Translations under genes and position numbers: made by a program | Notes under the pieces: generated by a model | Seen by the model: the letters and a program-made list of their open reading frames with translations, nothing else | Databases searched by the model: none | Told to the model about the DNA's origin: nothing | NCBI RefSeq assembly: GCF_021869535.1 | Contig: NW_026262604.1 | Location: 34,286,001-34,350,000 of the forward strand | Length of the DNA stretch: 64,000 bases | Reading direction: 5' to 3' | DNA from: Mytilus californianus | Lineage: Eukaryota | Shown here: in pieces, positions 9,495 to 11,412 of the stretch | Numbering within the stretch: the stretch's first letter is position 1 | How the letters are laid out: the number at the start of each line of letters is the position of its first letter

Positions 9495-10379
9495 TTAACA
9501 ACCATAAATCATTTGAGAATTTTTTGTAGTAGTGGCCAAAACTTCTTCAACAGGTATCAGTAATAATTTTGAAATTTCATGAGCTACAAAGATGACAGTG
9601 TATGGATTGGCAAGTTGTTCTTTATAGCCGATATATGGAGCATCAGATTCTAAAACTATCCTGCTGGTTCCTTTGTTGCAGATGAACTGTTTGATGGAGG
9701 GATATTTGTTGGTAAAGATGAAAGGTGTAACGCCAAATACAATGTTTGAAAAATGTGAGGATGCTGATTCAAAAATTTGTTCTGTCCCTGTGAAGCAATG
9801 CCAATGAATTTTATGGTTCCTAGGTAAGTTGTTGACCATGGAGGTTAAAGTTGAAAGGTTTAGGTTGTTATCTCCTCTGCTGTGGACAACGACTGGAAGG
9901 TTTTTCTGCACTGCCAAATTAAGCTGTTTTTCAAAATATGTTATCTGCTTCTGAAAGTTTTGAGAATTTGGTCTATCGGTAGTATCCAATCCACATTCTC
10001 CTACCGATACAGTTTTTGAAGATGCCAAAATAGAAGTTAAATTTTTGAAGAACCGGTCTAAAGTTGATGTAGATTTTGAGTTGACAATTCGAGGGTGCAT
10101 TCCAAAAGAGAGTCTGATTCTGTGATCCTTCCTGATTTCTGATCTTTCTGCTGACGATGGGAATTTTGCAGGGTTACAGTAATTGGCAATTAAAAATGAC
10201 AATTTGGTCTTAAAGAGGTCAGATGTTCCCATATCATCCAACTCATGGATACCAGTTAATCCGGTTTTTACCATGAGTTGGTCAAAATGAAAATGGGCAT
10301 CGACAGCCATCAATTGTCCTGTTGGGTTTGGCTGAGAGACATCCATTAAATAATCCAAAACGATCTTTTTGTTCTTCAA
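9495..10379 (-). CDS. tatD: TatD-family DNase domain (C-terminal part of a frameshifted ZnF-TatD ORF)
   Basis: TatD motifs in order: DAHFH, FGMHP, VGECGLD, QLNLA...LPVVVHSR, HWHCF, LESDAPY. Confidence 0.9.
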   Translation of the reverse strand: MKNKKIVLDYLMDVSQPNPTGQLMAVDAHFHFDQLMVKTGLTGIHELDDMGTSDLFKTKLSFLIANYCNPAKFPSSAERSEIRKDHRIRLSFGMHPRIVNSKSTSTLDRFFKNLTSILASSKTVSVGECGLDTTDRPNSQNFQKQITYFEKQLNLAVQKNLPVVVHSRGDNNLNLSTLTSMVNNLPRNHKIHWHCFTGTEQIFESASSHFSNIVFGVTPFIFTNKYPSIKQFICNKGTSRIVLESDAPYIGYKEQLANPYTVIFVAHEISKLLLIPVEEVLATTTKNSQMIYGC

Positions 10380-11412
10380 AAGTTTGTATCATGTTTTGTT
10401 GTTCTGCAGTTAATTTACTGATGACTATTTTCAGAATTTTCCAATGAAGTAAAGAATGTATATATGCTTGGCCAAAGTTGTCGAATATGTTAAAGTTGAA
10501 TTTAGATAGGTTATTAATTTGACAGAAAATATCGGCAAGAAAAACTTCCTCTGTTCTAAATGTTAAATTTTTGGATGCTCCGTACATTTTATTGCCAGGA
10601 ATATTCAAACAGCTAACAAGATGTATTAGTCCATCTGGATACGTCACTTCCAATATTCTGGCTAATTCTCTAAGCAGACCATTAATAAGCTGCACCCACA
10701 TCTGGTAACTGTTTGGGCCAAACTTTGCGTCACTTTCAACCTCTGGATGAACGTTGTTTATGTGATGTATCAGCATTGTAACTTGGGTAAACTGTTGCTT
10801 ACAATGGAAACAAGCGGACTCAGGAGCCACATACCATGGCAGATGGAATTTTGCTGCATGCCTAAACGGATGCCTCACAGGCAGCTGACAAATAAAACAA
10901 AGTTTACATTTTGGAGGACACGGTACCGCTACCTCAGGTGTTGTGAGAGGTATACAGAGATCTTCATCAGCCTCCTTCACTACCTGATGGTATTGCTCAT
11001 CATCTGTTGGCTTACCTCTTGCCACGATTGGTATCCCCATATCTTCGTCCGCCGCTTTCAGTATTTCCTGATACTTCCTCTGGTCCATCTCTAATTCCTG
11101 CTTCTTCGATATTAACATAGGCACACAAAGGTCCTCATCAGCCTCTCTCATTACTTGATGGTATCTTTTGTCTTCTTTCTCCTGCCTCCTTCTTTCTTTC
11201 TCCCTAATCACTACCCTTACATCCTCCCGTTTTGTCTCCTGATGAGTATCTTCCTGCTCTATCCATACATCTTCCTGCTCTGTCTCCAGATGAACATCTT
11301 CTTTTCCCTCATCCACATCCTCATCATAGTCAAGGTCTTCATAATTCTGCCTATATACCTCTTCCATCTCTTTATCATTACTCCAACTTTTTACCATGCT
11401 GGAAGTACACAA
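10282..11412 (-). CDS. Acidic, repeat-containing zinc-finger protein (N-terminal part of the ZnF-TatD ORF)
   Basis: Acidic N-terminus; three Y-x-Q/E...ADED-L/M-C/G-V/I-P repeats; CFIC...H...HLPW and CFHC...HINNVH zinc fingers. Removing one A from the CAAAAAG run near 10365 joins it in frame to TatD (FEEQKIVLDYL). Confidence 0.75.
   Translation of the reverse strand: MCTSSMVKSWSNDKEMEEVYRQNYEDLDYDEDVDEGKEDVHLETEQEDVWIEQEDTHQETKREDVRVVIREKERRRQEKEDKRYHQVMREADEDLCVPMLISKKQELEMDQRKYQEILKAADEDMGIPIVARGKPTDDEQYHQVVKEADEDLCIPLTTPEVAVPCPPKCKLCFICQLPVRHPFRHAAKFHLPWYVAPESACFHCKQQFTQVTMLIHHINNVHPEVESDAKFGPNSYQMWVQLINGLLRELARILEVTYPDGLIHLVSCLNIPGNKMYGASKNLTFRTEEVFLADIFCQINNLSKFNFNIFDNFGQAYIHSLLHWKILKIVISKLTAEQQNMIQTFEEQKDRFGLFNGCLSAKPNRTIDGCRCPFSF

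Follow-up and report, generated by a model that had tools for sequence, protein, structure and literature searches.

A TATDN2-related zinc-finger nuclease gene in the third-gene position of a Gypsy-type retrotransposon from Mytilus

On the minus strand of a 64,000-nt stretch of the Mytilus californianus genome (contig NW_026262604.1, positions 34,286,001 to 34,350,000; hereafter the window), the integrase of a Ty3/Gypsy-type long terminal repeat (LTR) retrotransposon is followed by an extra open reading frame (ORF3) that encodes two zinc fingers and a TatD nuclease domain, and then by a polypurine tract and an LTR. An earlier note on this DNA, made from the letters alone, had described this same-strand arrangement and proposed that the gene is an accessory nuclease of the element; domain order and coordinates confirm the arrangement, and the evidence below supports the proposal. 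We consider it very probable that ORF3 belongs to the element as an accessory gene and has a live nuclease site; the nuclease is, by tree and profile, a class II TatD from the animal TATDN2 lineage, not a bacterial TatD. As to its role, our tentative interpretation, which we rate somewhat below an even chance, is a clean-up role, in which ORF3 would process the element's RNA ends and its RNA:DNA intermediates. Enzymatic third ORFs are already known; what appears new is that the third gene of a Gypsy element should encode a zinc-finger-tipped nuclease of TATDN2 descent.

Linkage to an integrase is found in three separate sequences. Besides the window, a gene model from M. coruscus (P0003) has the same integrase tail at its N-terminus (127/138 residues identical), followed by the same ORF. 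The third is P0176, a single ORF of 2,287 aa on a contig of 8,870 bp, in which zf-CCHC, protease, reverse transcriptase (RT), RNase H and integrase domains, the full Gypsy Gag-Pol order, precede an in-frame C-terminal TatD. The RT and integrase of P0176 are 41% and 35% identical to those of the window, and its layout implies that a distant Gypsy element also has TatD after integrase. Taken together, the integrase tail of P0003, the P0176 fusion and a repeated motif common to several element parts support the assignment of ORF3 as an accessory gene in the ORF3/env slot of a Gypsy-type element, rather than a chance neighbor. P0176 was the only such case among 3576 candidates in a profile search over proteins of 1188–3390 aa; a TatD-only search over 477–2000 aa yielded 7 of 1385 candidates, and Pfam scans of 66 and then 26 further relatives found no RT or integrase domain.

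The repeated motif is 16 nt long, and each of its five copies folds to the same small hairpin. Copies lie in the integrase tail (11819–11834), the spacer between integrase and ORF3 (11505–11520), the TatD coding sequence (10249–10264) and the 3' untranslated region (UTR; 9306–9321 and 9198–9213), and this sharing across integrase, spacer, TatD and UTR ties ORF3 to the element. The count of five compares with 0.34 expected and was reached in 0/100 shuffles; the motif occurs nowhere else in the window and was recovered unprompted as a repeat family (D3). Two of the five copies fall within coding sequence, the two in the UTR derive from one duplication, and the closing pair of the hairpin is G-C in two copies and A-U in three. 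Both UTR copies contain ACTAAC, which we take to resemble a branch-point or STAR-protein binding consensus. As DNA, the motif is also an imperfect palindrome, and a DNA-binding role is possible.

Close homologues of ORF3 all come from Mytilus, and the intact copies among them, P0001 (643 aa, M. coruscus) and P0002 (667 aa, M. edulis) included, are 91–96% identical to the window copy in TatD. Ten named Mytilus relatives lie on ten differently sized contigs and seven of the ten are gapped or truncated, a pattern which argues that they are element-like, as expected of decaying transposon copies. When the window copy was compared with two intact copies, TatD was more conserved than the repeat region (262/272 against 89/102 positions, p=0.003; 248/272 against 80/102, p=0.001), which fits selection on the nuclease before this copy died.

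All seven catalytic residues are present in the window copy (HxH at 10295/10289, E at 9998, H at 9884, H at 9800, E at 9650 and D at 9644), as the retained HxH, GE, H, H and ExD motifs of the earlier note had indicated; the class II definition follows PMC10085689. Across the family the set of seven is complete in 85 of the 90 members ungapped at these sites, and this conserved active site supports a nuclease. The window copy also has TATDN2-like residues (C at 10178, H at 9806): its C417, H541 and C544 represent the two-cysteine and H-x-H-C features of TATDN2, and the spacing suggests that the cysteines correspond to C538/C656 of the TATDN2 paper. H541 is found in 22/22 TATDN2-like proteins and 66/93 family members, as against at most 1 of 63 bacterial sequences. 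The AlphaFold model of P0001 adopts the TIM-barrel TatD fold (Z 32.3, root-mean-square deviation 2.3 and 253 residues aligned against 1j6o; Z=32 to YcfH/TM0667; Foldseek E=1e-14 to YcfH).

Upstream of TatD, ORF3 opens with a head in which 40% of the first 60 residues are acidic, continues with three ADED repeats (at 11142, 11052 and 10971) and two C2H2 fingers, and reaches a helical domain with an LLHW motif at 10452. The acidic region, repeats and fingers had been recognized in the earlier note, and the fingers are borne out by the predicted structure: in the P0001 model (built from 67 sequences; mean predicted local distance difference test score, pLDDT, 82) both form beta-beta-alpha units at pLDDT 88–97, and the family profile matches CTCF fingers (E=2.7e-5). 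In the ESM Atlas, residues 170–360 gave weak C2H2-type leads only and P0010 gave no usable match; in a viral structure library the finger module had no match and TatD had one (Yasminevirus). The stop at 9495 and the single frame break reported previously stand, and two details change. The start at 11412 is the stop-to-stop limit, with the ATG at 11397 corresponding to Met1 of P0001, and tblastn with the intact homologues P0001 and P0002 places the break between the N-terminal and TatD halves at 10325/10324 rather than near 10365.

An envelope identity for ORF3 was considered and rejected. The protein has no signal peptide or membrane segment and is therefore not an envelope gene; its highest 19-residue hydropathy is 1.38 (−1.69 at the N-terminus), and no env Pfam model matches. 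For expression, a candidate splice donor near the LTR end, which would act from a 5' LTR copy, matches 7 of 9 consensus positions and scores best of the 9 GT sites in the LTR, while a candidate acceptor ending one base before the ORF3 ATG ranks 20th of 295 AG sites in the element and best of 4 in the spacer. This pair suggests a spliced ORF3 message. A further acidic motif, [LP]DY[EDQ], occurs within the first 120 residues of 27/93 finger-TatD proteins, against 0.42 in shuffles, and window codons ~23–26 encode its LDYD variant; it may be a docking motif for a host protein.

To place the nuclease, 1.84 billion representatives were searched with phmmer, giving 60 matches at E≤1e-30 among the best 150 listed. 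The finger-helical module is present in 111/176 stored proteins, 59 of these by construction of the profile, and is joined to a near-complete TatD in 93/176. Members of this finger-TatD family mostly fall in separate 50%-identity clusters, have a mean column identity of 16–19% and, where named, come from Mytilus and Lingula. In a careful tree of 61 chosen rows (32/94 finger-TatD, 13/22 TATDN2-like, 12/63 bacterial and 4 others), finger-TatD proteins form a clade (support 100/99) sister to TATDN2 (99/80), the two jointly separated from bacteria (100/98); in this tree, built without TATDN1 and TATDN3, the ORF3 family is thus a sister clade and not nested inside TATDN2. A quick tree of 167 rows likewise sets bacteria apart and leaves the base open; both trees exclude six vertebrate-like sequences and all fragments covering <80% of the domain. 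Of the phylogeny against TATDN1, TATDN2, TATDN3 and bacterial TatD that the earlier note had proposed, the trees provide the TATDN2 and bacterial parts, while the comparison with TATDN1 and TATDN3 is by profile: the family profile scores named amphibian TATDN2 at 244–249 bits, YcfH at 173, TATDN3 at 127 and TATDN1 at 96.

Mean identity between the ORF3 family and TATDN2 is ~29%, and fingers are absent from TATDN2-like proteins. Other additions occur nearby: an N-terminal NADAR domain in P0103 and P0171, sister TatD proteins on the family's side of the tree, and, within the TATDN2-like clade, zinc knuckles in P0153 and P0147 and a PWWP domain in P0006. A scan of prokaryotic genomes returned at least 600 pattern matches, of which 531 were confirmed. 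Bacterial origin or contamination was rejected since the best 80 prokaryotic matches are ordinary TatD proteins of 23–32% identity, and 0/80 of these have the finger half, an RT or an integrase nearby. Identity with QatD, the TatD of the QatABCD system, was rejected as well (NCBIfam NF041926, 64–66 bits against a cut-off of 230). A broader reading, which we judge rather unlikely, would assign the entire finger-TatD family to a widespread Gypsy lineage of invertebrates as an accessory gene of long standing: an R-loop RNase captured from TATDN2, fitted with its own zinc-finger reader for a hairpin repeated along the element's RNA, and supplied either through a spliced ORF3 message or within a Pol fusion. 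If true, LTR retrotransposition would include a nuclease-plus-signal system, not described before, for dealing with RNA:DNA hybrids.

Human TATDN2 acts in vitro as an RNase that degrades hairpin RNA and the RNA strand of R-loops, starting at the 3' end; its DNase activity is slight, its abasic-site activity very weak, and binding depends on its N-terminus (PMC10711561). TATDN1 and TATDN3 are single-stranded DNA exonucleases and apurinic/apyrimidinic (AP) endonucleases (PMC10085689). Because the nearest characterized relative, TATDN2, acts on RNA, we regard an RNA or hybrid substrate as more likely than the DNA substrates suggested in the earlier note, which had in mind cDNA end processing, gap repair or removal of immunostimulatory DNA. 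We propose that ORF3, like genes in the env position, would be translated from a subgenomic RNA made by splicing, and that its two C2H2 fingers and helical domain would provide nucleic-acid binding in place of the disordered N-terminus of TATDN2, possibly by recognizing the element's repeated hairpin. Within the element's own cycle, the TatD domain would then work as a two-metal 3' exonuclease, both on RNA ends and on those RNA:DNA or R-loop intermediates on which RNase H is inefficient, allowing reverse transcription, or transcription of an integrated copy, to be completed. In P0176, TatD would be carried into the particle as part of Pol, next to an RNase H that looks intact. This clean-up role is favored by the sister relationship to TATDN2, by fingers replacing the N-terminus and by the predicted packaging with Pol in P0176; granted an integral gene with a live site, the combination of RNA or hybrid substrate and role comes close to an even chance.

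Several points weigh against this interpretation. Retroelement context is established for only 2/176 stored proteins plus the window, and P0003 may represent the orthologous insertion and not a second, independent event. The finger module is missing from P0176, whose long branch falls inside the finger clade in the careful tree and is unplaced in the quick tree, and whose grouping with TATDN2 is not rejected (approximately unbiased test, p=0.227); its TatD may thus be a separate capture, and on these grounds one capture and two are indistinguishable. The quick tree needs two changes for the finger group, not one, and only 30/93 family members have the TATDN2-type cysteine at position 417. Covariation in the hairpin amounts to one pair and is not significant (52/500 shuffles), and the candidate splice sites come from a crude score. 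P0176 also keeps its RNase H motifs, and the idea that TatD replaces RNase H was rejected for this reason.

The same linkage and conservation would be expected if TatD instead destroyed by-products or guides that alert the host (single-stranded DNA, RNA:DNA hybrids or small silencing RNAs) and not intermediates that the element requires. Separate expression and a binding module of its own would suit ORF3 to action outside the particle, TatD enzymes degrade single strands as 3' exonucleases (PMC10085689), and a silencing role has been raised for the exonuclease ORF3s of bdelloid elements (PMC5408684); such counter-defence is a minority possibility, and the Pol fusion of P0176 points instead to the particle or the integration complex. 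Another alternative is a DNA repair or integration helper, working as an AP endonuclease or 3' DNA exonuclease on abasic or damaged sites in cDNA or on integration gaps, or tethering integration to R-loop-rich DNA in the manner of a chromodomain at the integrase C-terminus. The class II HxH site is that of the AP endonucleases TATDN3 and YcfH (PMC10085689), the fold scores Z=30–32 to TATDN3/YcfH-type structures, TatD is C-terminal to integrase in P0176 and the fingers resemble the DNA-binding fingers of CTCF. Nevertheless, tree and profile both put the family with TATDN2, whose DNase and abasic-site activities are so slight, and we hold such a helper to be unlikely.

Two further explanations appear improbable. 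If the gene were a passenger, derived from a TATDN2-like retrocopy of the host or from a separate mobile gene that inserted into a single Gypsy lineage and has since had no function, most of the family would be ordinary host genes; the small number of proteins of known context and the broken state of the window copy would agree with this, and TATDN2 retrocopies are known in mammals (PMC5408686). Against it stand the non-uniform conservation in favor of TatD, the 85/90 intact sites, the motif shared between the TatD coding sequence and other element parts, the separate Pol-TatD fusion in P0176, and the lack of fingers in TATDN2-like proteins. The other casts the nuclease as defence cargo that attacks competing viruses or mobile elements, much as QatD, a TatD co-opted for antiviral defence (PMC13434339), acts against phages. 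An antiviral role has been proposed for accessory domains of retrotransposons (PMC6338049) and the fast divergence of the family would fit conflict, but the QatD model scores far below its cut-off, the family is not bacterial in the tree and there is no evident target.

Bdelloid LTR elements, whose third ORFs encode DEDDy exonucleases and GDSL esterases, offer the closest precedent in their DEDDy-exonuclease ORF3 (PMC5408684). In that group the Juno and Vesta elements are likewise Gypsy-like with a 3'-5' exonuclease in the env position, and their ORF3 likewise has intact catalytic residues and no transmembrane segment (PMC5408684). However, that enzyme belongs to the DEDDy superfamily, whereas the mussel ORF3 is a TatD TIM barrel by Pfam and fold, with a two-finger module, TATDN2 ancestry and a Pol-fused form in addition. 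Animal TATDN2 has the same class II HxH site, E/E/D set and H-x-H-C motif, and both of its cysteines are found in the window copy; unlike ORF3, it is a single-copy host gene with a long disordered N-terminus (PMC10711561, PMC10085689), where ORF3 has an acidic head and a folded finger and helical module and is multi-copy, uninterrupted and inside a retroelement. Other host or viral enzymes captured and kept by retrotransposons, whether in an ORF of their own or as a fusion, include DNA methyltransferases in dinoflagellates and charophytes (PMC5890265) and viral superfamily 1 helicases (PMC6338049), whereas the mussel case concerns a nuclease and an animal host. Errantiviruses and other env-carrying Ty3/gypsy elements likewise have a third ORF, probably spliced, between integrase and 3' LTR (PMC13524379), but ORF3 lacks a signal peptide or membrane anchor and carries enzymatic cargo. 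QatD is likewise a class II TatD in genetic conflict (PMC13434339), although in a bacterial operon and with no fingers.

TatD is not mentioned in the main texts of the bdelloid LTR paper (PMC5408684), of a metazoan env-Gypsy survey (PMC13524379) or of a mollusc LTR survey (PMC6238403). No paper on a TatD in a retroelement was found, judged mostly from listings, with Repbase, Dfam, GyDB, supplements and subscription papers outside this scope; there is a minor but real chance that the arrangement is already catalogued in one of these.

RNase H and integrase are generally regarded as the only nucleases that LTR retrotransposons need. A TATDN2-derived nuclease whose active site has stayed intact throughout a large, fast-evolving family, both as ORF3 and fused to Pol, would point to a step, or a threat from the host, that is solved by an enzyme of the element's own. 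Since intact natural proteins exist, the open question of what the bdelloid exonuclease ORF3s do becomes testable here, and these proteins offer compact, folded relatives of the hard-to-purify TATDN2. A further implication is that many of the genes annotated as 'tatD' in mussels probably belong to transposons, and counts of gene families would be distorted by them.

The copy itself (Table 1) is a dead, truncated and internally inverted relic whose 5' half is missing. What remains, judged from sequence, is the 3' half of a Ty3/Gypsy-type LTR retrotransposon from a Mytilus-like mussel, with a TG...CA LTR and polypurine tract, a YxDD RT and a D-35-E integrase with GPY/F tail. Reading along the minus strand, integrase core, integrase tail, extra ORF, polypurine tract and LTR follow one another, so that integrase is the last Pol domain before ORF3 and the LTR. 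The RT fragment adjoins the integrase on the opposite strand, which marks the copy as truncated and inverted: the integrase core starts abruptly at the inversion junction, the stretch from RT to integrase core is missing, and the RT fragment has its upstream end at the junction and its downstream end outward. Integrase also has a frame break of its own between core and tail (~12195–12162). This rearrangement, with RT on the opposite strand, a broken integrase frame and a single LTR, was absent from the earlier account, which had correctly identified the LTR. Three sites in the window combine a purine tract with TG, and as the 6-bp inverted repeat closes only this one, the assignment as an LTR follows from anatomy. 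Within the window, blastn found no second LTR or further element copy; the junctions show no convincing target-site duplication, this copy yielded no ORF for gag, protease or RNase H, and Rfam gave nothing credible across 8000–14500. The duplicated units in the UTR (9173–9291 and 9281–9403) are 90% identical, and the second purine tract is possibly an extra or old plus-strand primer. The inversion has a topology that we take to resemble twin-priming inversions of non-LTR insertions, yet at its 3' end the copy has a full LTR and lacks a poly(A) tail.

Table 1 Features of the ORF3-bearing element in the window (positions are those of the window)
Feature	Position	Strand	Remarks
Inverted RT fragment	12877..~13690	+	RVT_1 5.3e-20; YLDD at 13648, ends right after the motif
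Integrase core	12162..12881	−	rve E=6.6e-15; D-D-35-E intact (12842, 12662, 12554)
Integrase C-terminal part (GPY/F module) and acidic tail	11527..12195	−	Integrase_p58_C 5.7e-8
Spacer, integrase tail to ORF3		−	130 bp
Candidate splice acceptor	11399..11416	−	TACTTCCAG; ends one base before the ORF3 ATG
ORF3	ATG 11397 to stop 9495	−	~633 codons
ORF3 N-terminal half	10324..11397	−	acidic head, ADED repeats, two zinc fingers, helical domain
C2H2 finger 1	10843..10899	−	C-x2-C-x9-H-x4-H; ligands kept in 66-67/67 aligned proteins
C2H2 finger 2	10747..10812	−	C-x2-C-x12-H-x4-H; both cysteines in 66/67, His columns less fixed
TatD domain, class II	9495..10325	−	Pfam E=4e-38
Second G-rich purine tract	9485..9496	−	overlaps the TatD stop codon
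3' untranslated region	9101..9494	−	394 bp; 108-bp tandem duplication inside
Polypurine tract	9085..9100	−	adjoins the LTR
3' LTR	8783..9084	−	302 bp; TGTGGT...ACCACA, 6-bp terminal inverted repeat
Candidate splice donor	8805..8813	−	CAG/GTAATA, near the LTR end; would act from a 5' LTR copy
16-nt hairpin motif, five copies	9198..11834	−	CCGGAYYAACTGGYWT; each folds to the same small hairpin

Elsewhere in the window, a Polinton/Maverick-like element, broken in several places, occupies 26728–38723. Its protein-primed DNA polymerase B lies in pieces at 27784–32128 on the plus strand, while the minus strand encodes an A32-like ATPase, an adenovirus-type protease, a double-jelly-roll capsid protein in two frames, an integrase with chromodomain, and a protein with CARD and two PC4 domains. 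A lone PC4-domain ORF (18447–18968, plus strand, E=1.2e-8) is akin to the PC4 gene of that element and is possibly a fragment of another Polinton-like copy. Broken ORF pieces at 5672–6377 (minus strand; no Pfam match) presumably resemble the C-terminal part of a Penelope-like RT. Two tandem C2H2 arrays with an 84-bp period extend over 44268–51843 on the minus strand: the one at 50254–51843 keeps an open frame of 529 aa, in which 13 fingers were matched, and that at ~44300–46700 is broken. Satellite or dispersed repeats with periods of ~500, 38, ~160 and ~256 bp are found at 1100–3680, 40000–41000, 47951–48971, 57943–58583 and 58954–61724, with an inverted copy of the 500-bp family near 40000–40450.

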